From assembly GCF_053078305.1 (NCBI RefSeq), contig NZ_CP166879.1: a DNA stretch of 64,000 nt. The stretch is one strand, 5' to 3'. The notes beneath the pieces were generated by a model. The model was not told the DNA's origin. It searched no databases and saw only the letters and a list, made by a program, of their open reading frames with translations. Both the position numbers and the translations under genes were made by a program. Shown here piece after piece: positions 4,015 to 59,063 of the stretch. Every line of letters begins with the position of its first letter. Within the stretch, counting starts at the first letter, position 1.

Positions 4015-6810
4015 ATGGAGATAATTATGAGAAACCTCTGTTTCTTACTGACGTTAGTGGCAACTCTGTTGTTCCCCGGGCGGCTGATTGCCGCCGCCTT
4101 ACCGCAGGATGAAAAGTTAATTACCGGGCAACTGGACAATGGCTTGCGATATATGATTTATCCGCATGCTCATCCAAAGGATCAGGTAAATTTATGGCTG
4201 CAAATTCATACCGGTTCATTGCAGGAAGAAGACAATGAGCGCGGCGTGGCTCATTTTGTAGAACATATGATGTTTAACGGCACAAAAACATGGCCGGGTA
4301 ATAAAGTCATCGAAACATTTGAGTTAATGGGCCTGCGTTTTGGTCGCGATGTTAATGCCTATACCAGCTATGACGAAACGGTGTATCAGGTGAGTTTGCC
4401 AACTACGCAGAAACAAAATCTGCAACAAGTGATGGCAATCTTCAGTGAATGGAGTAATGCCGCAACCTTTGAAAAACTCGAAGTAGACGCTGAACGCGGC
4501 GTAATTACTGAGGAATGGCGTGCCCATCAGGATGCGAAATGGCGCACCTCTCAGGCGCGCCGCCCTTTCCTGCTGGCTAATACCCGTAATTTAGACCGTG
4601 AACCTATCGGCCTGATGGATACTGTCGCCACGGTCACACCGGCACAATTGCGCCAATTTTATCAACGCTGGTATCAACCAAATAATATGACCTTTATCGT
4701 GGTTGGCGATATCGACAGTAAAGAAGCGCTGGCGCTGATAAAGGATAATTTAAGTAAGCTTCCGGCTAACAAAGCAGCTGAAAATCGCGTCTGGCCGACA
4801 AAAGCCGAAAACCACCTGCGCTTTAATATCATTAATGATAAAGAAAACCGGGTGAACGGCATCGCACTCTATTATCGCCTGCCAATGGTACAAGTGAACG
4901 ATGAGCAAAGCTTTATCGAACAAGCTGAATGGAGCATGTTAGTTCAGCTGTTCAATCAACGTCTGCAGGAACGTATACAGTCGGGCGAGTTGAAGACTAT
5001 TTCTGGCGGCACTGCGCGCAGCGTTAGAATTGCACCCGATTATCAGTCGCTGTTTTTCCGTGTAAATGCACGAGACGATAATATGCAGGATGCTGCGAAT
5101 GCATTAATGGCAGAGTTGGCAACCATTGATCAGCATGGTTTTTCTGCTGAAGAACTCGATGATGTCAAATCTACCCGCCTCACCTGGCTGAAAAATGCGG
5201 TTGATCAGCAAGCTGAACGTGATTTACGTATGCTGACCAGTCGCCTGGCATCCAGCTCATTAAATAATACGCCGTTCTTGTCGCCGGAAGAGACATATCA
5301 ACTTTCGAAACGTCTGTGGCAGCAAATTACCGTGCAAAGTCTGGCGGAAAAATGGCAGCAGTTAAGAAAGAACCAGGACGCATTTTGGGAGCAAATGGTA
5401 AACAATGAGCTTGCCGCAAAAAAAGCATTGTCTCCTGCGGCTATCCTGGCGCTGGAAAAAGAGTACGCCAACAAAAAGCTGGCGGCTTACATCTTCCCAG
5501 GCAGAAATTTATCGTTAACAGTAGACGCTGACCCACAGGCGGAAATTAGCAGCAAAGAAACGCTGGCTGAGAATCTGACATCATTAACACTTTCCAATGG
5601 TGCCAGGGTTATTCTGGCAAAATCCGCGGGTGAAGAGCAAAAACTACAAATTATTGCCGTATCGAATAAAGGCGATTTAAGTTTCCCTGCGCAGCAAAAA
5701 TCACTTATCGCGCTGGCAAATAAAGCAGTTAGCGGAAGCGGCGTTGGCGAACTCTCCTCTTCCAGCCTGAAACGCTGGAGTGCGGAAAACTCGGTAACCA
5801 TGAGCAGTAAAGTCAGTGGCATGAATACGTTGCTCTCCGTTAGCGCGCGGACTAATAACCCTGAACCTGGTTTTCAGTTGATTAACCAGCGAATCACCCA
5901 CAGCACGATTAACGACAATATTTGGGCATCGCTACAAAATGCTCAAATTCAGGCGTTGAAAACGCTCGACCAGCGTCCAGCGGAGAAATTCGCCCAGCAG
6001 ATGTATGAGACGCGCTATGCTGATGACCGCACGAAATTACTGCAAGAAAATCAGATTGCACAGTTTACTGCCGCAGATGCGCTGGCTGCCGATCGCCAGT
6101 TGTTTTCATCTCCAGCGGATATCACGTTTGTCATTGTCGGTAATGTCGCAGAAGACAAACTCGTGGCGTTAATTACGCGTTACTTAGGATCAATCAAACA
6201 CTCTGATTCGCCATTAGCCGCAGGTAAACCATTAACTCGCGCGACGGACAACGCATCGGTTACTGTAAAGGAACAAAATGAACCTGTGGCACAGGTTTCA
6301 CAGTGGAAGCGTTATGATTCCCGGACACCTGTTAATCTGGCGACGCGTATGGCGCTCGATGCTTTTAACGTCGCACTGGCAAAAGATCTACGCGTTAATA
6401 TTCGTGAACAGGCATCTGGGGCATACAGCGTTTCTTCTCGCCTCTCGGTTGATCCTCAGGCCAAAGATATCAGTCATTTGCTGGCTTTTACTTGTCAACC
6501 AGAACGACATGATGAACTGTTAACGTTAGCGAATGAAGTGATGGTTAAGCGTCTGGCTAAAGGGATCAGTGAGCAAGAACTGAATGAATACCAGCAAAAC
6601 GTTCAGCGCAGCCTCGATATCCAACAGCGTAGCGTTCAACAATTAGCGAACACTATTGTAAATAGTCTTATTCAATATGACGATCCTGCAGCATGGACTG
6701 AGCAGGAGCAATTGTTGAAACAAATGACGGTAGAGAATGTTAACACTGCCGTTAAACAATATCTTTCTCATCCGGTAAATACTTATACTGGAGTATTATT
6801 GCCAAAATAA
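4015..6810 (+). CDS. pqqL: Periplasmic M16-family zinc metallopeptidase
   Basis: 931 aa, signal peptide, inverted zinc-binding motif HFVEHMMFNG; start could be the downstream Met (MRNLCF). Confidence 0.88.
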   Translation: MEIIMRNLCFLLTLVATLLFPGRLIAAALPQDEKLITGQLDNGLRYMIYPHAHPKDQVNLWLQIHTGSLQEEDNERGVAHFVEHMMFNGTKTWPGNKVIETFELMGLRFGRDVNAYTSYDETVYQVSLPTTQKQNLQQVMAIFSEWSNAATFEKLEVDAERGVITEEWRAHQDAKWRTSQARRPFLLANTRNLDREPIGLMDTVATVTPAQLRQFYQRWYQPNNMTFIVVGDIDSKEALALIKDNLSKLPANKAAENRVWPTKAENHLRFNIINDKENRVNGIALYYRLPMVQVNDEQSFIEQAEWSMLVQLFNQRLQERIQSGELKTISGGTARSVRIAPDYQSLFFRVNARDDNMQDAANALMAELATIDQHGFSAEELDDVKSTRLTWLKNAVDQQAERDLRMLTSRLASSSLNNTPFLSPEETYQLSKRLWQQITVQSLAEKWQQLRKNQDAFWEQMVNNELAAKKALSPAAILALEKEYANKKLAAYIFPGRNLSLTVDADPQAEISSKETLAENLTSLTLSNGARVILAKSAGEEQKLQIIAVSNKGDLSFPAQQKSLIALANKAVSGSGVGELSSSSLKRWSAENSVTMSSKVSGMNTLLSVSARTNNPEPGFQLINQRITHSTINDNIWASLQNAQIQALKTLDQRPAEKFAQQMYETRYADDRTKLLQENQIAQFTAADALAADRQLFSSPADITFVIVGNVAEDKLVALITRYLGSIKHSDSPLAAGKPLTRATDNASVTVKEQNEPVAQVSQWKRYDSRTPVNLATRMALDAFNVALAKDLRVNIREQASGAYSVSSRLSVDPQAKDISHLLAFTCQPERHDELLTLANEVMVKRLAKGISEQELNEYQQNVQRSLDIQQRSVQQLANTIVNSLIQYDDPAAWTEQEQLLKQMTVENVNTAVKQYLSHPVNTYTGVLLPK

Positions 6811-27061: not shown

Positions 27062-27715
27062 TTATATCCCTTCTTCACTCTCTTTTTTCGCTTCTGCCTT
27101 CTCGATTTCACGATACCAGCGCGGATGGTGTTTCTTCGCCCAGCGACGGCTCACCTTCCCTTCGATCATCCCTTTAATCGATCCTTTCACCCAGAATGCC
27201 ATATACATATGGATCAGGATGGCGTGGATCAGGATGATACCCGCAGCCGCGTGGATCAGCAGGCTGTAGCGAACAACCTGCATCGGGAAGTACTGCGCAA
27301 AGTACGGACGCCAGATAATCACCCCGGTCACCAGCAGCACGAAAATCATGCTCATGATCGACCAGAACATCATCTTTTGCCCGGCGTTGTACTTACCGAC
27401 ATCCGCCACTTTGTGCTCATTGCCTTTTAATACTTCGACAATGTTCAACAGCCACGGAATATCTTTCTTATCCGGGATGTTGTGATGCACAAAACGCACA
27501 AACATAAACATCAGTGCGACGAAAATCGCAATGCCGAAGAACGGGTGCAAAATGCGTCCCATCTGCGGCGTACCGAAGGTTTGCGTCAGCCATTGCAGCG
27601 TCGGGAAGAAGAACGAAATCCCGGACAGCGCCACCAGGAAGAAGCAAATCACCACGGTCCAGTGACAGGCGCGATCAATAAATTTGGTGCGCACAATCAT
27701 TTTCGACTTACTCAT
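27062..27715 (-). CDS. fdnI: Formate dehydrogenase-N gamma subunit (cytochrome b556)
   Basis: 217 aa from [19 protein letters not shown]; membrane b-type cytochrome. Confidence 0.93.
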
Positions 27716-28592
27716 GATGATCCTCCTCGTCATCGTCCACTTCCTTATTCGGGCCAATACCGATGTAATGGAAAATCAACCCTGCAAAAGTGGCAATAAA
27801 GCCAGCCGCTGCCAGCGGTTTCAACGCGCCTTTCCACAGGCTTACCGAGGTGTCGATCTTCGGATCTTTCGGCAGACCGTGATACAGCTCCGGCTGATCG
27901 GCGTGATGCAGCACGTACATAACGTGCGTACCACCGACCCCTTCCGGGTTGTAGACGCCAGCATGTTCGTAACCACGCGCTTTCAGTTTCGCCACGCGCT
28001 GTTCCGCCAGCTCCAGCATCTCCTTCTTGGTGCCGAAGTGGATAGCCCCGGTCGGACAGGTTTTCACACAAGCCGGTTCCTGGCCGACGCTGACGCGATC
28101 GACGCAGAGCGTGCATTTATATACCCGGTTATCCTCTTTGTTGAGGCGCGGAATATTAAACGGACACCCGGCAATGCAGTAACCACAGCCGATGCAGTTT
28201 TCCGACTGGAAATCGACAATCCCGTTAGCGTACTGAATGATTGCACCAGCAGACGGGCACGCCTTCAGGCAGCCGGGATCTTCACAGTGCATACAGCCGT
28301 CTTTACGGATCAGCCACTCCAGCTTGCCGTTCTGTTCGGTTTCGCTAAAGCGCATCACCGTCCAGGACTTGGCGCTCAGATCGGCGGGGTTATCATAAAC
28401 CCCGACGCAGTGCCCCACTTCATCACGGATGTCGTTCCACTCCGAACACGCCACCTGACAGGCTTTACAGCCGATACAGGTGGAAACGTCGATAAGTTTC
28501 GCGACTTCTGCTTTGTAATCACGCACCTGAGAAGGCGGCGTGATGGAGTTAGTTGCGGACCTTTTGATAATGTCCTGCGTTTCCATAGCCAT
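27708..28592 (-). CDS. fdnH: Formate dehydrogenase-N beta subunit (iron-sulfur)
   Basis: 294 aa with four CxxCxxCxxxCP ferredoxin-type clusters. Confidence 0.95.
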
Positions 28593-28604: not shown

Positions 28605-31600
28605 TTACGCCTTCTCGATGTTGACTAAGAACGCTTTATATTCCGGCGTTTGCGAGTTTGCATCACCGACATTCGGCGTCAGAGTGTTAGCGATATAACC
28701 TTTACGCGCGACACCCTCAAAGCCCCAGTGGATTGGAATACCCACCGTTTCAACCTGCTGACCGTTTACATTCAGCGGTTTCAGACGGCGCGTTACCACA
28801 GCCACCGCGCGGATAAAGCCACGCTTGCTTGAGACAGTGACACGATCGCCATTATTAATGCCTTTCGCCGCCGCCAGCGTTTCGCTGATTTCCACAAACT
28901 GTTCCGGCTGAGCAATTGCGTTGAGCAATGCGTGCTTGGTCCAGGTGTGGAAGTGCTCGGTCAGACGATAGGTCGTACCCACATACGGGAACTGCTCTTT
29001 TTTACCCATCCGCAGCGCGTCTTGTTCATACAGACGAACGACCGGGTTAGACACCACGTTCGGATGCAGCGGATTAGTGCCCAGCGGCGTTTCAATCGGC
29101 TCGTAGTGTTCCGGGAACGGACCTTCCGCCATTTTGTTGATGGCAAACAGGCGTCCCATCCCTTCCGGCTGCATAATAAACGGCCCGGTTGGCGTACCCG
29201 GTGCGGCATTGCCGAAGTCCGGAATATCGTTACCCGTCCACTTGCTGCCGTTCCACTGGATCAGCATCCGTTTCGGATCCCACGGTTTACCGTTGATATC
29301 CGCCGAAGCACGGTTGTACAGCACGCGACGGTTGAGCGGCCACGCCCAGGCCCATCCCAGCGTATTCCCCAGACCGGACGGGTCGGAGTTATCGCGGTTA
29401 GCCATCTGGTTGCCCTGCTCTGTCCAGCTACCGGTGTAGATCCAGCAAGAGGATGCGGTTGTACCGTCATCACGCAGATGCGCAAAGCTACTCAGCAACT
29501 GACCTTTCTTCGCAATCAGCACGCCATTTGCGTCATAGAGATCTTCCAGCGCATAGCCGTTGTTCTCTTTTGCCACTTCGTCAGATTGCGGTTCGTGCGG
29601 CTGCTTGTAGTTCCAGCTCATCTTCATCAGCGGTTCTACGCCTTTACCACCTTCGGCCTGGTACAGCTCGCGCAGATGATGGTAGATACCCGCCAGAATT
29701 TCGCCGTCGTTACGCGCTTCGCCCGGCGCGTCCTGACCTTTCCAGTGCCACTGCAACCAGCGACCGGAGTTAGCGATAGAACCATCTTCTTCGGCAAAGC
29801 AGGTCGAAGGCAGACGGAATACTTCAGTCTGAATAGACGCCGGATCGACATCGTTCGACTCGCCGTGGTTCTGCCAGAAGGTTGAGGTTTCAGTCACCAG
29901 CGGATCGATAACCACCATGTACTTCAGTTTGCTCAGGCAGCTCACCACTTTGTTTTTGTCCGGGAAGGACGCAACCGGGTTAAAGCCCTGGCAGAAATAA
30001 CCGGTGACTTTGCCTTCATCCATCATGTTGAAATACTTGATGACGTCGTAGGTCTGGTCCCACTTCGGCAGCCAGTCATAGCCCCAGTTGTTCTCTTTCT
30101 GCGCGGCATCGCCATAGAAAGATTTCATCAGGCTAACGAAGAACTTCGGATAGTTGCTCCAGTAGTTCACCTGATCAGCCAGCGTCGCTTTCGGCGTGTT
30201 CGCTTCCAGATACGACTGCAAATCAACCTGTTTTTCTGACGGCAGCGTCAGATAACCTGGCAGGCTGGTAGAGAGCAGACCTAAGTCAGTCAGACCCTGA
30301 ATGTTGGAGTGACCACGCAATGCATTCACGCCGCCACCGGCCATACCCATGTTACCGAGCAGCAACTGGATCATCGCCATAGTACGGATGTTCTGCGCAC
30401 CCACGGTGTGCTGCGTCCAGCCCAGCGCGTACAGGAAGGTGGTTGTGCGATCCGGTGCGCTGGTGGAGGCCAGCACTTCACACACTTTCAGGAAGTCGGC
30501 TTTTGGCGTACCACAGATGTTTTCAACAACGTCCGGCGTGTAGCGGGAAACGTGCGCTTTCAGCAGGTTCCACACACAGCGCGGATGAGTCAGTGTTTCA
30601 TCGCGTTTTGCATAGCCGTTTTCATCGAACTGATAGTTCCAGGACGACTTATCGTACTGGCGTTTTTCAGCGTCGTAGCCGCTGAACAGACCGTCTTCGA
30701 AAGCAAAATCATCACGCACCAGCAGGCTGGCGTTGGTGTAATGCTTAACGTATTCAGCGTTGATTTTGTCGTTTTCGATCAGGTAGCGCAAAACGCCAGA
30801 CAGGAACGTAATGTCCGTACCGGAACGAATAGGTGCGTAAATATCCGCTACAGAAGCGGTACGCGTAAAACGGGGATCGACAACGATCAAGGTTGCATCG
30901 TTGTTGTTTTTCGCTTCCATCGCCCAGCGGAAACCGACGGGATGCGCTTCAGCAGCGTTACCGCCCATTACCATTACGACGTTAGCGTTTTTGATATCCA
31001 CCCAGTGGTTGGTCATCGCACCGCGACCAAATGTTGGAGCAAGACTTGCTACCGTTGGTCCGTGTCAGACGCGCGCCTGGTTGTCTACCGCCAGCATCCC
31101 GAGGGAGCGGGCAAATTTCTGGGTCAGCATCCCGGTTTCGTTGCTGGCACCGGAGGCACACAGCATACCGGTAGAAAGCCAACGGTTTACCGTTACACCC
31201 TGCTCGTTCTTTTCAATAAAGTTAGCGTCACGGTCAGCTTTCATCAGCTTAGCAATACGGGAGAATGCTTCTTCCCAGCTAATGCGCTGCCATTTGTCAG
31301 AACCTGGCGCACGATATTCCGGGTAGCGCAGACGGTTTTCGCTGTTGACGTAATCCAGCAAACCGGCCCCTTTCGGGCACAGCGCACCACGGCTTACCGG
31401 ATGATCCGGGTCACCTTCAATGTGATAAATCGCTTCTCTGGCGTTTTTTGCGCCATCACCCAGGCTATACATCAATAGCCCGCAACCTACGGAACAGTAT
31501 GTGCAGGTGTTACGGATCTCTTTAGCGCGTAATAATTTGTAGTTTCGCGCCTGAGCCAGTGCTTGCTTCGGGGCAAAGCCCAATGCCGCTACTGTTGTTC

Positions 31601-31652
31601 CAGCCATACCGCCCGCGCAGATTTTAAAAAATTGTCTGCGACTGACGTCCAT
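28605..31652 (-). CDS. fdnG: Formate dehydrogenase-N alpha subunit, selenocysteine-containing, Tat-exported
   Basis: ORF-track fragments 31065..31652 and 28605..31016 are one reading frame joined through an in-frame TGA (plus-strand 31065-31067), context NQARV-U-HGPTVASLAPTFGRG; twin-arginine signal SRRQFFK. Confidence 0.93.
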
Positions 31653-31716
31653 TGCTTTCCTCTTTTTTCAGGGGTATTACTGCGCGAGGAAACTAACAGT
31701 AAAATTCTGAATCTTT

Positions 31717-31731
31717 TTGCGCGAAATCAAA
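31717..31731 (-). promoter_or_regulatory. Candidate FNR box for the fdnG promoter
   Basis: Minus-strand TTGATTTCGCGCAAA (TTGAT-N4-xxCAA type) about 65 bp upstream of the fdnG start; fdnGHI is known to be anaerobically induced. Confidence 0.5.
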
Positions 31732-31883
31732 AAGAACACGTGTTTGCCACAAAATAATCCGCCTGCGCAAATTGACCTACCTCAATAGCGGTAGAAAAAC
31801 GCACCACTGCCTGACAGGCCAGTTAAAAAAATGCTATAAAATTCAGCTTAATTTTTAACGGCAAGAGAGACAAAACAGCGAGC

Positions 31884-49526: not shown

Positions 49527-49613
49527 GATTGTGCTCCTTTTGAAAGATGTCAGTAAAATTAACACACATTGTGAATGTCGTATGTCCGGTGATGCGTTTT
49601 TACGACAATAATG

Positions 49614-50594
49614 CCAGGGCAAGATTACGAAAGCCTTCTCCCCGCAAGGACTGACGCCAGGTAGTTTCTGTCCATGGCTGCTTTTCGCATCTTACGTCTT
49701 AACCCTGCCTTGAATACCTTATCATTCGTCAAAATATTAATAGCAATGTGCCGTATCCCTGAAAATAATTCTGCTGCATTTCCTCTTCTTATTTTGCAGT
49801 CGTCTTCATTCATTACCACGTCCAGACGCCAGTGCAGCTTATTCTCCACGTGCCAGTGGTTTCGGATTGCTGTGGCGAACTTCTCTGCGGTTAAATCAGC
49901 AGAACTGATATAATATCTGACCGTCATTTCTGGCTCTTTCTTTTGTTCTGCTATTATTGAGCGAAATGAGACTGCCATGCATAATTTCTTCAGCCCTTTC
50001 CATTCAAACGTGAAATCAATAAGTTCATCAGGGATATCGCAGACAATATGGAGACGGATTTTAATGACATGAATCGCTCCCCTGCGGCGACTCTTGTCAT
50101 AAGAGTGCCGGAGCGTTTTTCCATCAATTGCAATGACGTCTTTATCATCTGAAGAATGGCAGTCACGCATCCAGTTAATAAAGCACTCGTGAAATTTTGC
50201 AGGACTGATACAGGATACAACTCTGGCAATGGTATCGTGAACAGGAATACCATTTTCAAAATCACCATATTGCTTCAAAAAATCGAGATGTGTTTCCCCA
50301 AAATCCTCTATATCTTCCCAACCTTCTGCACCAGAAACAACGGCACAAATAATCAACAGTAGAATATCCGATAATTTATGTTCCACTTTCCAGGCTTGTC
50401 TGTAATCGGGGATAATAGAAATATGTTCCATCAATTTTTTAAGTTCCATTTTGTTTCCTTAATTATGTAAGGAGTATTTGATCATGTATAAGCAATAAAA
50501 AACAGCTTTAGGTAATGAGGAACATATCAATTTTTAAACATAAAATGCGAATTATTTAGTACAAAAAGTGTACTTCCGATGATCTTTCCCTGCC
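49614..50594 (-). mobile_element. ydcC: H-repeat (ISAs1-family) element copy 1, transposase with internal deletion
   Basis: 274-aa frame (49625..50449) aligns to both ends of the roughly 378-aa H-repeat transposase but lacks about 100 central residues (junction [17 protein letters not shown]). Confidence 0.75.
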
Positions 50595-50862
50595 ATTAAA
50601 TAATGTCTTATTTGACCTTGCCAACATACAACAAAATAATTGAAATATATTCAAAATTAATTTAAACATTCATCAGGCGTCCTTTTCTAAAAAACCTAAT
50701 CATTTAATGGTTAAATTACAATCAAACAAACAAAGTAAACTGGAATTATAGTTGTGGTGCACTTCACGATTTTAGCATTCTTGCTCCTACATTTATACTC
50801 TCTGCCGCGGAAATTTGTTCTCGAAACTTAACTAAACCCAATCAATCATCCTTGCCTTATCG

Positions 50863-51366
50863 TTACTTGAATTTATCAAGACATTTATCATTGCTGACAC
50901 TTTCAATATTTATATGATATACAGTTCCTGTGTTTGAGATATATACTTCCTTAAGCTTATCAGTTTTACTCTCATTATTATAAAAGTAGCCCCCGATAAT
51001 TTTATTCTTCTTTGATATATAAGTGACAGTGTCAGTATGAACTCCACCATTTATTGTCATAATGAATGAGGCATCCAAGTTCATCGTACTTTCCCCCTTA
51101 AAATATATTTTACCATTAGAAATCACTTTGGTCTCAGAAACACCGTTAGGCTCGTCATTACTAATTAATATAAGTAAATCTACCATTTCGGATTTTTTAT
51201 CTCTTTCTTTATAACCACCAATATCATCCAGGATATTATTTGACACTTTTCCACAAAGCATCACTGAGTAATTATTCAAATTTTTGAGTTGAGAGCACTT
51301 TGCCACAAAAGAGAATGAAATAAATATCAAACCTACCGAAATGATTATTGTTTTTTTAAAATTCAT
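50863..51366 (-). CDS. Exported small protein, candidate immunity protein for the upstream effector
   Basis: 167 aa with N-terminal signal peptide MNFKKTIIISVGLIFISFSFVAKCS; 4 bp downstream of the effector stop; about 27% GC. Confidence 0.55.
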   Translation of the reverse strand: MNFKKTIIISVGLIFISFSFVAKCSQLKNLNNYSVMLCGKVSNNILDDIGGYKERDKKSEMVDLLILISNDEPNGVSETKVISNGKIYFKGESTMNLDASFIMTINGGVHTDTVTYISKKNKIIGGYFYNNESKTDKLKEVYISNTGTVYHINIESVSNDKCLDKFK

Positions 51367-51370
51367 TGTT

Positions 51371-53449
51371 TTAAAGAATCCTTATGTAATTAAGTGGAGG
51401 TGTTATTTCATCATTCAATACATACCAAGAATGCTCAAATGCTGGCCAACGCACTAAATCGAAGCCATCTGCTGCTGGGTTTATTCGCCGTGTAACTTCT
51501 CTGGCATCTGACAAACTACATCCTTTATCCGCCCAATAATTAACGCCTAAACTACCACTAGGTGTCAATCGATGGCTTACCATTATGTATTTTTGCTTAC
51601 TTGCCCAAAAGTATCCCCCGGCATCGCAAGAAAAATAGGCATTTTCAACTGGGAGTTGGTTATTGGGTTCTGTAGTAAAAAAATCATCATCTGACGGATT
51701 TCTATACTTTCCATAATTTCTATAATTCTCACGACCAGTTAGATGTATGGTACCTCTGCCTTTAAATCTTGCACCATCACCAACAACATTATTTCCAAGC
51801 TTAAGTCCCTGTTCTGTTCCTGGCTCATACATATCAAAATAACTCGAATCACCATTCTCTATAAAAGACGCAAATCTGCCTGTTTCTCTCGCCATCTGAC
51901 CGAAATAATGCGCAATCCGCAATGGGGTTGTAATTAAGTACTTCCTTAGTGACTTTGACAGTTCATTTTTCAACCCTGCAGGTCTTATCACCTCACCACT
52001 GCTATTTTGTCCTTGGCTAGTAATCCGCTCAATTAGAGTGTCTTTACTTAATGGTCTTGTAAGTTCTGATGTCATGGGATAAGCATTTTGATAACGTCTT
52101 ACCACACTTATAATATCATTTTCTCCTAACCACCCACATTTCCTGAAATGTGCAATAAACTGCCTGGGATCAAAATGCCATACACGCCTGGCAGGTAACG
52201 GATTATCTACCAAACAAAGCGCCTTACAGTGTTCTATCAGCAAATCCAGGTCAGGCTCTGTCATCGGCTTACTCAATACGTCATTGGGTGATTTCAGCCA
52301 CTCAAACCGTGATTCCACGGTGGCGCTGTCCCATTCTAGCGGAAAATGACAAATCATCCGACTTAGGTCATTGCGGGTTGTACACAGGATTGTTGGTGAA
52401 TTGCACTGGCTGTTGGTGTCCGCATCATCGTTCACCAGTTTCCACCCTGTCCAGTGTGGAAAATCACCGTCGCTGTAAACCCTGATATCTCTCGCCCCTA
52501 AGTTAACAACGCCTTTACCCTGTGGCGTATTGATTGTTCGCCACAGCGGCGCATCCGCCGGGACTAATTCTTCATATTCTGTATTAACAACCCGACCAAA
52601 ACGCAGCATCTCATAACCGGCACTTGGGCTTTTCGGATAGAGTTGCAGCGCGTAGGAATAGAGATTGTATTCATAATCCTTACCATCAGCATTAATCAAG
52701 GGAGAACCTACTTCAGTATAGGTATCACTCAGCACTTCATGCTGCTGACGCGTCACCATCGTACAATTGCCTTTATCAAAACTCATTGTGACATACAATG
52801 GCACGCTGGTTCTTTGTACCGGACTGTTGTTCGCAAGCGAGTTTTCTTCCGGCATGTCCCCATAAATCGGTGTTCCGGCAGGGAGATAAAAATGACTATC
52901 ACCGTAAACCACATCAGTTCGTCCATCTTTATTCAGGTCTGTTTCCGGTGATATTCTTCCTGTGATTTTCTGAATGTTTTCATCATCACAAAAAATCTGA
53001 AAATGAAAGGCGTTCTGTCCGTCCACCATCCCTGCTGCACCAACCGGTTCTTTCCGGTATAGCGTGTTTCCCGGCTGCACATTACTGTCAATGCTTCTCA
53101 GGTGCATATATAATGAGTAATAGACGATTTTACCCTCTTCTCCACTACCGATTTCTGTTTCATGTTTTATCAGAACATAGCCTTTATCCGTAACTCCGTT
53201 ATAATTTAACGGAGGAACTGTATTTTCCGCTGGTTCTGGCTGGCGTATTGAAATAACCTTCCCATCGGCAATACACCTAACAGTCTCTGACAGATTGCCG
53301 TTCAAATGAACTCCACCATGCCAAGAACGACCGCTATTCATTGGGAAATTTCTTTCTGGATCAACAGACATCATTCTGTTTACCCAGTCAGAGTCTTTTT
53401 CAGTGTCTATATGCGCATGCAATATTGGAGGGCTGATTATCATTATCAA
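51371..53449 (-). CDS. Candidate T6SS peptidoglycan-hydrolase effector: M23-like domain plus GH19/lysozyme-like C-terminal domain
   Basis: M23-like block HGGVHL…ADGKVIS…YYSLYMHLRS…GAAGMVDGQNAFHFQIF; GH19-like block YFGQMARETG…GDGARFKGRGTIHLTGRENYRNYG; first gene downstream of vgrG. Confidence 0.6.
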   Translation of the reverse strand: MIMIISPPILHAHIDTEKDSDWVNRMMSVDPERNFPMNSGRSWHGGVHLNGNLSETVRCIADGKVISIRQPEPAENTVPPLNYNGVTDKGYVLIKHETEIGSGEEGKIVYYSLYMHLRSIDSNVQPGNTLYRKEPVGAAGMVDGQNAFHFQIFCDDENIQKITGRISPETDLNKDGRTDVVYGDSHFYLPAGTPIYGDMPEENSLANNSPVQRTSVPLYVTMSFDKGNCTMVTRQQHEVLSDTYTEVGSPLINADGKDYEYNLYSYALQLYPKSPSAGYEMLRFGRVVNTEYEELVPADAPLWRTINTPQGKGVVNLGARDIRVYSDGDFPHWTGWKLVNDDADTNSQCNSPTILCTTRNDLSRMICHFPLEWDSATVESRFEWLKSPNDVLSKPMTEPDLDLLIEHCKALCLVDNPLPARRVWHFDPRQFIAHFRKCGWLGENDIISVVRRYQNAYPMTSELTRPLSKDTLIERITSQGQNSSGEVIRPAGLKNELSKSLRKYLITTPLRIAHYFGQMARETGRFASFIENGDSSYFDMYEPGTEQGLKLGNNVVGDGARFKGRGTIHLTGRENYRNYGKYRNPSDDDFFTTEPNNQLPVENAYFSCDAGGYFWASKQKYIMVSHRLTPSGSLGVNYWADKGCSLSDAREVTRRINPAADGFDLVRWPAFEHSWYVLNDEITPPLNYIRIL

Positions 53450-53590
53450 TAGTCCTTATTAAGCTTATAAAACATGTAACGAGTATGAATTATTCATTCA
53501 CAGAGCATCTCTGCTTAGAAAGCAGAAAATCACAGTATTATTGTATTATTACTACCGTCATCCGTTATCTTTATCTGAATGATTATCCCA

Positions 53591-55755: not shown

Positions 55756-56040
55756 TCAGCCTATATTTACCGTGCCGCCACCAATAACCACGCCGCCGCA
55801 GTCAATGGCATCACCGGTTCTGGCGGCGGGCAGGCCGTCAATAAAGACGGTTGAAGAGCCTCTGGCGATTTTTCGGGGATGAGGTGGATGCTTCGGTTTA
55901 GCATGCGGCGTCGGCGGATCTCCCTGACGGGCTGCGGGGAGACCATCGATAAAAACGGTGGATGACCCGGCGGTGATGACGGTCTCGTAATAACCGTCGT
56001 GCTGAGTGCCTTTGTCGGTGAGTTTGGCTGCTAAAGGCAT
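55756..56040 (-). CDS. PAAR-domain protein (T6SS spike tip), copy 1
   Basis: 94 aa with two GLPAAR(Q/T)GD motifs; 18 bp upstream of vgrG copy 1. Confidence 0.85.
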   Translation of the reverse strand: MPLAAKLTDKGTQHDGYYETVITAGSSTVFIDGLPAARQGDPPTPHAKPKHPPHPRKIARGSSTVFIDGLPAARTGDAIDCGGVVIGGGTVNIG

Positions 56041-56395
56041 AATTCCTCCTGTTCAGAATTTCTACAGCAGCAGGTTTCAAAAATCCGGAGAAATATTCAA
56101 CGAAACATTAATCACTTCACCGGATATTCTGACACGTACCTTCACTAGTCTATTTAAGTAATACAAATTGTTGGCGTGTAATACCCCATTCTCCTTTCAT
56201 TATCTTTGCCTTTAAAACAGAAAGTTCTTGAAATATATATTTAAGGAAAAAACCACGATAAACACCACAAGGATAATATAAATCACCAAGTTATCGAAAA
56301 TTTAAAAAATCACGCGTCAGATCTGATAAAAAATAGGCTATCACATGTAACTCCTGGGCGATCTCGCAAAAATTAAATTATAAAAATACATGACG

Positions 56396-57376
56396 CAGGG
56401 CAAGATTACGAAAACCCGCTCCCCGCAAGGACTGACGTCAGGTAGTTTCTGTCCATGGCTGCTTTTCGCATCTTACGTCTTAACCCTGCCCTGGATACCT
56501 TATCATTCATCAAAATATTAATAGCAATGTGCCGTATCCCTGAAAATAATTCTGCTGCGTTTCCTCTTCTTATTTTGCAGTCGTCTTCATTCATTACCAC
56601 GCCCAGACGCCAGTGCAGCTTATTCTCCACGTACCAGTGGTTTCGGATTGCTGTGGCGAACTTCTCTGCGGTTAAATCAGCAGAACTGATATAATATCTG
56701 ACCGTCATTTTGGGATTTTTCTTTTGTTCTGCTATTATTGAGCGAAATGAGACTGCCATGCATAATTTCTTCAGCCCTTTCCATTCAAACGTGAAATCAA
56801 TAAGTTCATCAGGGATATCGCAGACAATATGGAGACGGATTTTAATGACATGAATCACTCCCCTGCGGCGACTCTTGTCATAAGAGTGCCGGAGCGTTTT
56901 TCCATCAATTGCAATGACGTCTTTATCATCTGAAGAATGGCAGTCACGCATCCAGTTAATAAAGCACTCGTGAAATTTTGCAGGACTGATACAGGATACA
57001 ACACTGGCAATGATATCGTGAACAGGAATACCATTTTCAAAATCACCATATCACTTCAAAACATCGGGATGTGTTTCCCCAAAATCCTCTATATCTCCCA
57101 GTCTTATGCACCAGAAATAACGGCGCAAATAGTTAACAGATAGAATATCTGGCAATTTATGTTCCACTTTCCAGGCTTGCCTGTAATCGGGGATAACAGA
57201 AATATGTTCCATCAATTTTTTAAGTTCCATTTTGTTCTCCTTAATTATGTAAGGGGTATTTGATCATGTGTAAGCAATAAAAAACAGCTTCAGGCAATAA
57301 GGAATATCTCAATTTTCAAACATAAAATGTGAATTATTTAGTACAAAAAGTGTACTTCTGATGATCTTTCCCTGCC
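56396..57376 (-). mobile_element. H-repeat (ISAs1-family) element copy 2, degraded
   Basis: About 93-95% identical to copy 1 over about 980 bp with the same internal deletion junction ([17 protein letters not shown]), plus extra frameshifts splitting the frame (ORFs 56406..56951 and 56855..57049). Confidence 0.75.
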
Positions 57377-57453
57377 CTTGTTTATTAGGTATATACCATA
57401 AATACTGAGTATTTTATTGTGCTATTTGTTTATTAAAAATTTGCGAGCAATAA

Positions 57454-57933
57454 TTAAAGATTGCCATCTTCATTGCCGACGAAATAAATATCAAATGAAC
57501 ACTCCAATCCAAGATTAGCCATTATTTTCATCTGCTCAGGCCATAAAGTTGGCCCACCGTGCCAATTCAATGATCTCCAGGTACAGTCAATACCCATTGA
57601 AATATTTTCTAATGCTTGCAATTTTGCAATATTTGATGATTTAGGTCCAAGTTTGTGAAGTAGCCAATCCAGATGTTCTCGAATATCTTTCGAGTTCACT
57701 AGATTTTCTGACGAGAGCATCCAATATGAATTTTTTGCATATCTTTTCTTTCCCGATAGAGTAATAATTTCATCTCCTTTTATATTAATTGATGTTGGCT
57801 CAAGTTCTAAGTGAATACTTATTTCATTAGGGTGAGTATTACCTGTGTAAATCAAGAGGCTAGCATAGCACTCATCACAACTTGGATATTCATGAGATAT
57901 CGGGGTAAGCCTTGATTGTATATTCTTAATCAT
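57454..57933 (-). CDS. Candidate immunity protein for the PAAR-like toxin
   Basis: 159 aa, no signal peptide; start overlaps the toxin stop by 4 bp (ATGA). Confidence 0.5.
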   Translation of the reverse strand: MIKNIQSRLTPISHEYPSCDECYASLLIYTGNTHPNEISIHLELEPTSINIKGDEIITLSGKKRYAKNSYWMLSSENLVNSKDIREHLDWLLHKLGPKSSNIAKLQALENISMGIDCTWRSLNWHGGPTLWPEQMKIMANLGLECSFDIYFVGNEDGNL

Positions 57934-59063
57934 AAATAATCCTCTATGTTTCCTAAAATATTTCCTGAGTCATCAATATAATCACCATTATCAAGTATTC
58001 GACCATGGTGATCACCTCGTAAGCGTAAATCTTTTTTCAACTTTTCTAAAGCTTTCCCCCATTCTCTCCTGTTAATATTTTTACCAAAAAATTCATTTAA
58101 CTCCCTGGCAGTTCTTGCCTCAAGAGTATTACCTCCAGTTTGTAATACTCTCGGAACTCTTCCCGCAGCGCCAACGCTTGGAGGAACAGGAATAGGCAAT
58201 CCATTTGCATCCAGCACAATTTTAGCACCGCTCCTCCCCATTCTGCCAACCGATTTTATTGCAAACTTCGCTGAAAACTTGACCAAACCTTTCACCAGTG
58301 CTCCAACCCCGGTCATAAGTTCCAGCCATGGCTCAACCTCCATCGCCATTGCTTGGGTTTCATTGGCAGGTTTCAACAATGGCTCTCTAGGATCAATAGT
58401 TTCCATTACCTCCCTGTTGGTCTCATTCGCCCGCTCCATAATTTGGGTATCCATCCCCAACCCTCTCGCCAGAGCAATATTACTTTCCATTTGGGCAATG
58501 TCATTTTGCATCTGACCTTTGGCAATCAATGCACCCAACATATACCAGCCATTAATAAATGCCTTGCCTAATCCTATCATTGCATCTGCTTCTTGCTTTT
58601 TGGACTCAAGCTCAAACTCTTGCTGTTGTCTTTGCAGTTCCAGATACCTGGCCCAAAGCGATGATTCTTTAACAGGTATTATCTGATTTGGCAGGTTTGT
58701 CTGGGTATACAGTTTTCCAACAGTATTATCATTATTCATGGCAACCAGCGAAAGATTCCTGGCTACCGGCTTTCCCTTGCACTTTATATGATCCACGCCT
58801 GTCAGTATCCGGCAGTCACCGCTGCCCAGACTGGTGCCAGAACTGACACCTTTCCCGGCATTACTTCGTGTACCTGCAATAATACAGTCCACGGTCAGTA
58901 CTGGATTGCCCCGTGCCCTGACATTGCTGATATAAATTTTCTCATGTGTCAGGTCCTGAAAGCTGTCAAACGGCACTATCGCATCACCAACCTTGCAGAC
59001 ATCAGGCGCAATACATATCGCAACGTACTTCGATTCACGACAACCAATATGATTTTCAGCCAT
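57930..59063 (-). CDS. Candidate T6SS effector: N-terminal PAAR-like (DUF4150-type) domain with C-terminal toxin domain of unassigned family
   Basis: N-terminus CRESKYVAICIAPDVCKVGDAIVPFDSF fits the PDVC…P.P(F/Y) PAAR-like pattern; C-terminal 100 aa basic with a DHHG…N…N segment. Confidence 0.55.
   Translation of the reverse strand: MAENHIGCRESKYVAICIAPDVCKVGDAIVPFDSFQDLTHEKIYISNVRARGNPVLTVDCIIAGTRSNAGKGVSSGTSLGSGDCRILTGVDHIKCKGKPVARNLSLVAMNNDNTVGKLYTQTNLPNQIIPVKESSLWARYLELQRQQQEFELESKKQEADAMIGLGKAFINGWYMLGALIAKGQMQNDIAQMESNIALARGLGMDTQIMERANETNREVMETIDPREPLLKPANETQAMAMEVEPWLELMTGVGALVKGLVKFSAKFAIKSVGRMGRSGAKIVLDANGLPIPVPPSVGAAGRVPRVLQTGGNTLEARTARELNEFFGKNINRREWGKALEKLKKDLRLRGDHHGRILDNGDYIDDSGNILGNIEDYL

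Follow-up and report, generated by a model that had tools for sequence, protein, structure and literature searches.

The fdnG gene of Escherichia coli and its SECIS element are already known. Their biology has been on firm ground since 1991; in the crystal structure of Fdh-N, which dates from 2002, selenocysteine (Sec) is a ligand to molybdenum. That the UGA of fdnG encodes Sec was reported by Berg et al. (1991), as cited in PMC13188914, and the mechanism of bacterial SECIS elements is covered in that article. The minimal SECIS of E. coli fdhF is a 17-nt upper stem-loop located 11 nt from the UGA, in which a bulged U17 and the loop residues G23 and U24 are the contacts of SelB (PMC8659212). 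The lower helix, in the published view, is not required and opens up when the ribosome comes near (PMC13188914; PMC8659212).

In this report, we describe the fdn region of a stretch of 64,000 nucleotides (NCBI RefSeq assembly GCF_053078305.1, contig NZ_CP166879.1), referred to as the window. It almost certainly carries a canonical E. coli fdnG, whose UGA codon 196 is read as Sec by way of a downstream SECIS hairpin, and we see no deviation from the known system in the window. As in FdnG of E. coli K-12 (PDB 1KQF/1KQG), the product has 1015 residues, a Tat signal, the cysteines 50, 53, 57 and 92 of the [4Fe-4S] cluster motif, Sec196, His197 and Arg446. The fdnGHI order and the neighbours yddG and yddM-adhP are likewise those of the K-12 fdn locus. 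The window protein differs from the crystallised K-12 protein (1KQF_A) by only a few substitutions, at least four in number. The features discussed in this report are the following, all on the minus strand.

27062..27715 (-): fdnI, cytochrome b gamma subunit (model NF007558 (FdnI), 486.9 bits, cutoff 339)
27708..28592 (-): fdnH, Fe-S beta subunit (TIGR01582, 482 bits, cutoff 334.7; annotated fdnH in the closest genome)
28605..31652 (-): fdnG coding sequence, 1015 residues plus stop, with one in-frame UGA (translation, 1KQF_A, TIGR01553, RefSeq)
31022..31064 (-): SECIS hairpin, whole predicted stem-loop (Rfam RF01989, with which the minimum-free-energy fold agrees)
31036..31053 (-): apical SECIS minihelix, the probable SelB-binding part (pairing and covariation in 79 listed homologues)
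31065..31067 (-): UGA codon 196, Sec, active-site Mo ligand (sequence; aligns with X196 of 1KQF_A)
31554..31652 (-): putative Tat signal peptide, residues 1-33, MDVSRRQFFK...ALA (S-R-R-x-F-F-K motif and A-L-A site)
31655..31662 (-): presumed Shine-Dalgarno-like sequence GAGGAAAG, read from the sequence and ending 2 nt ahead of the ATG
31717..31730 (-): FNR-box-like site TTGATTTCGCGCAA, candidate for anaerobic activation (TTGAT-N4-ATCAA with 2 mismatches)

In the list of open reading frames (ORFs) made for 27-34 kb, fdnG appears as two minus-strand pieces, one at 31065..31652 (195 aa, ending ...AVDNQARV) and one at 28605..31016 (803 aa, starting MTNHWVDIKN...). An earlier note on this DNA had claimed that the two are a single FdnG joined through the TGA at 31065-31067, and that this UGA is translated as selenocysteine; both claims agree with what follows. 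The ORFs lie in the same frame, and the TGA (minus strand, 31067..31065) is the sole internal stop. Translated in that single frame, 28605-31652 (-) comprises 1016 codons with stops at codon 196 and at the terminal codon 1016 only, and the text at the junction runs from ...NQARV through the stop symbol into HGPTVASLAPTFGRGAMTNHW... From the TGA to the ATG of the 803-aa ORF, positions 31064..31017 hold 16 codons, all of them open, which are missing from the ORF track because the tool begins ORFs at the first ATG, GTG or TTG.

The identity of the protein follows from comparison with solved structures and curated families. In a phmmer search of the PDB, residues 1-1015 of the read-through product align with residues 1-1015 of 1KQF chain A (2396 bits, E = 0), which is described as 'formate dehydrogenase, nitrate-inducible, major subunit' and in which the deposited residue X196 (selenocysteine) stands opposite the UGA. 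After it, at about 958-963 bits, come Sec-containing periplasmic formate dehydrogenases of solved structure. The model for the alpha subunit of formate dehydrogenase-N (TIGR01553) covers residues 2-1014 with 1622 bits, the cutoff being 814.2. The alignment with formate dehydrogenase alpha subunits that had been proposed as a check thus places both ORFs within one match, be it to 1KQF_A or to TIGR01553. The twin-arginine motif SRRQFFK can be read in the translation at residues 4-10; the position at which the signal peptide is cleaved we take from what is established for FdnG.

The neighbouring genes bear on the choice between the two isoenzymes. The fdnI product, 217 aa when counted from an internal ATG, is encoded by a gene that shares 8 nt with the end of fdnH. 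This gamma subunit scores only 268.4 bits with the FdoI model NF007924, below its cutoff of 341. With a score above the cutoff for FdnI but below that for FdoI, it marks the enzyme as the N and not the O isoenzyme, and together with the fdn synteny this upholds the assignment of the gene to fdnG made in the earlier note. The order yddG-fdnGHI-yddM-adhP is the same as in the closest annotated genome, where yddG lies on one side of fdnG and fdnH, fdnI, yddM, adhP and maeA on the other. Compared by megablast with E. coli genomes, the region finds its best match at 99.4% identity and most matches at 95-99%, and of 5426 complete genomes of the species, 5425 contain it. In RefSeq, the genome that is 99.4% identical has one fdnG coding sequence of 3048 nt annotated across the UGA.

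A gene for a porin of the OmpC family (33024..34124; 496 bits, cutoff 484) adjoins yddG. From about 34.2 to 37 kb the GC content is low (0.35-0.40), and this stretch contains an ORF resembling leucine-rich-repeat effectors (35594..36871), annotated as espR1 in the closest genome. The genes narU-narZYWV follow the low-GC stretch, from 37.1 kb onward. The extra porin gene and the effector-like island upstream in the window are not known from K-12.

The segment that follows the UGA matches the Rfam family SECIS_3 (RF01989) over the full model, positions 1-59, at 31012..31070 (-) with 84.3 bits (gathering score 63, E = 3.3e-20). Given this E value and that of the full-length match to 1KQF_A, chance can be ruled out. 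Since E. coli fdnG itself, or something almost identical to it, is very probably among the family members, the score is in part the recognition of a known sequence. The element of E. coli fdoG belongs to the same Rfam family. In contrast, the model of the fdhF type, SECIS_2 (RF01988), reaches only 28.8 bits on the same element, under its gathering score of 70. The earlier note had placed a SECIS within about 31020-31064; the paired part of the Rfam match, 31064..31022, falls there, pairing begins at the base right after the UGA (31064), and the whole lies within the coding region. Folding of the 45 nt past the UGA had been put forward as a further check. Minimum-free-energy folding recovers the Rfam hairpin both from 56 nt and from 31020-31064 (45 nt), but the energies are not unusual against shuffled sequence, with z = -0.99 and z = -1.70, respectively. 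Because these z values are so modest, thermodynamic folding alone does not discriminate a SECIS.

The geometry of the hairpin is canonical. The apical minihelix starts 11 nt past the UGA and consists of G-G, a bulged U (31051), a stem of 5 bp and the loop G-U-C (31045-31043), so that the bulged U stands at +17 and the loop G-U at +23 and +24. The E. coli fdhF element, whose binding by SelB has been dissected by experiment, likewise starts right after its UGA, has its minihelix at 11 nt and carries U at +17 and G-U at +23/+24. It differs in stem sequence and in the lower helix, the window element fitting SECIS_3 and not SECIS_2. In the window, unlike in fdhF, an additional A-U pair (G·U in some homologues) leaves a predicted loop of 3 nt (GUC).

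Evidence of a different kind comes from homologues. One genome per species (GTDB) was scanned with the back-translated pattern UGA-His-Gly-Pro-x-Val-x6-Phe-Gly-Arg-Gly-Ala-Met-Thr, which fixes the protein motif and leaves free the wobble positions under test. The scan gave at least 120 stretches, and the matches listed contain 79 distinct 59-mers, the window's own sequence included. These listed matches span Enterobacterales, Pasteurellaceae, Pseudomonas, Burkholderiales, Alphaproteobacteria, Acidobacteriota, Actinomycetota, Geobacterales and Desulfovibrio. Alignment column c corresponds to window position 31071 - c.

Across the 79 listed 59-mers, 96.6% of the cells of the apical helix are paired (columns 18-25 with 29-35, that is 31053-31046 with 31042-31036). 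Compensatory changes occur in three of its seven pairs (21-33, 22-32 and 24-30), and two of these are wobble-to-wobble. Pair 21-33, which joins the wobble positions of Val201 and Ala205, is GC in 53 of the 79, AU in 13 and CG in 9. Pair 24-30 joins those of Ala202 and Leu204 and is AU in 37, CG in 37 and GC in 3, and pair 22-32 is GC in 64 and UG in 13. None of 500 shuffles reaches the observed covariation score, and when the 3' partners are slid by 1-3 columns, overall pairing drops from 88% to 28-50%. The unpaired positions are conserved as well. The U of column 20 (31051, +17 from the U of UGA) is present in 79/79 of the listed 59-mers and the loop G of column 26 (31045, +23) in 78/79. The loop U of column 27 (31044, +24), a synonymous third position, is again invariant (79/79), and G18, at another synonymous site, is found in 78/79.

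The lower stem behaves otherwise. In the Rfam register (31064-31055 with 31030-31022), no pair is changed on both sides in the 79 listed 59-mers, and the window sequence itself has several non-standard pairs there, A12-G44 and A8-C48. The minimum-free-energy register yields one weak pair in the same set. Many cells of the lower stem are unpaired. All this is in keeping with the published view of the lower helix cited above. We do not claim a defined lower SECIS helix, as both registers are without covariation support and the register is ambiguous. Evolutionary support is limited to the upper 18 nt of the hairpin of about 45 nt. These apical 18 nt are under RNA-level selection inside a coding region, and the lower stem is not visibly so.

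The hairpin-like conservation after the UGA might be ascribed to constraint on the encoded protein, or to an exchange between fdnG and fdoG by gene conversion, with no functional RNA at all. The conserved peptide HGPTVASLAPTFGRG indeed fixes most columns of the element. Furthermore, fdnG and fdoG share the same 59-mer within genomes, an outcome that gene conversion could bring about as well. In other Enterobacterales, the two genes of one genome show little or no difference over the 59 nt around the UGA; in the flanking coding sequence, they are only about 75-81% identical. The synteny of the window is that of fdn. For fdnG/fdoG pairs from five genomes, third-codon positions were scored in same-residue codons, in bins of 20 codons. 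Within the bin that starts at the UGA, third positions are identical at 18/18 or 19/19 sites between fdnG and fdoG, and in the flanking bins at about 30-85%. Beyond single genomes, one identical 59-mer occurs at no fewer than 23 loci, with Yersinia, Photorhabdus and Klebsiella among the genera, while flanking synonymous sites diverge. The informative sites are synonymous third positions, which either covary in Watson-Crick fashion (21-33, 24-30) or are invariant (U27), and the signal crosses phyla, where gene conversion is not an option for these copies. Its synonymous location and its persistence over such distances lead us to exclude an explanation by coding constraint or gene conversion alone, which seems to us highly improbable.

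A second reading would make of fdnG a pseudogene that a nonsense mutation, the TGA, has inactivated and of which the two ORFs are remnants. A naive ORF call does give two pieces, and the energy of the downstream RNA fold is not significant by itself. However, a TGA stands at the same position in homologues from Proteobacteria, Acidobacteriota, Actinomycetota and Desulfovibrio, and residue 196 is Sec in the crystal structure. The 1015 codons contain no further stop or frameshift, the region is present in all but one of the complete E. coli genomes compared and is annotated as an intact coding sequence, and the SECIS shows RNA-level selection. A pseudogene is excluded since the UGA is conserved across phyla, no other lesion is present and a SECIS is in place, and we regard it as most unlikely. 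Less credible still is a pair of genes whose products, an Fe-S protein with the Tat signal from the N-terminal part and a molybdopterin protein from the C-terminal part, are made independently, with the UGA as a true stop and re-initiation at the ATG at 31016. The 803-aa ORF does have this ATG 16 codons past the TGA, but no Shine-Dalgarno sequence precedes it and the 3' arm of the hairpin sits there. The reading is excluded because no part of the family is more conserved than the 16 intervening codons (HGPTVASLAPTFGRGA), which hold the catalytic His197 and belong to a single solved chain.

For a canonical fdnG with a Sec codon, the course of events can be proposed from established knowledge. 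FdnG is the alpha subunit of nitrate-inducible formate dehydrogenase-N, that is, the catalytic subunit with molybdopterin and a [4Fe-4S] cluster, and would be exported by the Tat pathway. SelB, carrying GTP and Sec-tRNA(Sec), would bind the apical minihelix, and this tether would place the ternary complex at the ribosomal A site as the UGA arrives, so that release factor 2 is outcompeted. Where selenium or the products of the sel genes are missing, translation would halt and leave a fragment of 195 residues. In the full-length protein, the selenol of Sec would ligate the molybdenum of the bis-MGD cofactor. FdnGH, once folded, would be exported by Tat and anchored by FdnI, and electrons would pass from periplasmic formate to menaquinone. 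The steps of SelB binding, Sec delivery, Mo ligation, and Tat export with FdnI anchoring are summarised in PMC13188914; for this strain, SelB binding, Sec insertion and Tat export are expected on the basis of such established knowledge. A scan of the window for tRNA genes (selC) found none, and the window contains no sel genes. The decoding capacity of the strain is therefore assumed.

Upstream of fdnG, the sequence contains candidates for regulatory sites at which nitrate and anaerobiosis would induce expression (NarL/FNR). The FNR-like site listed above is one of 53 matches to the FNR consensus across the window, where 43 are expected; as this count is at chance level, the sequence match is no evidence by itself. 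We assume a candidate FNR box at this place from its position and from the literature. An inverted heptamer pair, TACCGCT-AT-TGAGGTA, is present at 31778-31793, at 62 bp centre to centre from the FNR-like box. This spacing would presumably fit the published positions of FNR (-42.5) and of a NarL 7-2-7 site (-104.5). The pair TACCGCT/TACCTCA deviates from the strict NarL consensus, and the only match upstream of fdnG to the strict heptamer TACYYMT lies at -24 and is irrelevant.

The practical consequence concerns annotation quality only. Any ORF finder for which UGA is a stop breaks fdnG in two, as it does fdoG and fdhF, and ORF tracks should join the pieces. What is added here to a known system is a reproducible demonstration of RNA-level selection on the apical 18 nt. 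One further observation touches on the protein. In 13 of the 79 listed homologues, residue 202 is Ser (UCC) in place of Ala (GCN), and residue 205 is at the same time Gly (GGN) in place of Ala (GCN). These coupled replacements turn the RNA pair 22-32 from G-C into U·G, and the helix is kept. It is conceivable, if rather doubtful, that coupled replacements in the enzyme are imposed by the SECIS hairpin. Such a reading would illustrate a known principle and would not amount to a new system; if it is true, some of the sequence beside the active site of this formate dehydrogenase would owe its shape to RNA structure and not to protein function.

Upstream of fdnG, two minus-strand elements were recognized, the first by its resemblance to the FNR consensus:
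31717-31730, minus strand: FNR-box-like sequence TTGATTTCGCGCAA
31778-31793, minus strand: inverted heptamer pair TACCGCT-AT-TGAGGTA
The centre-to-centre distance between them is 62 bp, and matches to the FNR consensus occur at chance level across the window (53 observed vs 43 expected). This spacing is compatible with the published fdnG control region, with FNR at -42.5 and a NarL 7-2-7 site at -104.5; on that layout, fdnG transcription would start near 31681.

Beyond fdnG, a porin gene adjoins yddG, and the stretch between the porin gene and narU has a GC content of 0.35-0.40 (about 34200-37000), the flanks being at about 0.52. The genes concerned are:
33024-34124, plus strand: general porin, 366 aa
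34884..35552: ORF of 222 aa, inside the low-GC stretch
35594..36871: leucine-rich-repeat ORF of 425 aa with weak similarity to SlrP, inside the low-GC stretch
The porin, annotated as 'ompC' in the closest genome, scores barely above the NCBIfam OmpC subfamily cutoff (496 bits vs 484) and is a second OmpC-like porin. In Salmonella the equivalent position is occupied by ompD, and K-12 is not known to have a gene there. The leucine-rich-repeat ORF is annotated in the closest genome as the type III secretion system effector EspR1. An NCBIfam search with the 222-aa ORF returned no match, and the corresponding place in strain A16 contains only a 288-bp leucine-rich-repeat pseudogene. The low-GC stretch probably represents an effector islet gained by horizontal transfer. 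GC content is also low (0.35-0.37) at about 49600-53500 and 56000-58000. If gene order keeps following that of the closest genome beyond about 20 kb from fdnG, these segments would have an ISAs1-family transposase and an M23 peptidase gene in their vicinity.

Around the selenocysteine codon, fdnG was compared with its paralogue fdoG in five pairs, each within one genome (L046/L047, L033/L034, L039/L040, L050/L051 and L061/L062). In all five, the 59 nt around this codon are the same or almost the same and third positions are 100% identical over 20 codons from the UGA, while the flanking coding DNA is just 75-81% identical.

Among the matches listed, a single homologue departs from the apical-helix pattern of the SECIS hairpin after the UGA, and it contributes most of the cells scored as 'not paired':
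4126-4184 of locus L027 (Candidatus Desulfovibrio gallistercoris): post-UGA sequence HGPTVPALAESFGRG; ...GGTACCGGCTCTGGCAGAG...
Its SECIS presumably lies in a different register.

Replacement of Ala202 by Ser goes together with replacement of Ala205 by Gly in 13 distinct homologues (VSSLGP vs VASLAP) of the alignment A1 of 59-mers, among the matches listed:
A1 columns 22-24 and 31-33: FdnG residues 202 and 205 (examples L010, L012, L021, L030)
In the homologues with Ser202 and Gly205, SECIS pair 22-32 changes from G-C to U·G and the helix stays paired. The coupling of these residues appears, from the aligned sequences, to be an amino-acid covariation mediated by RNA structure.
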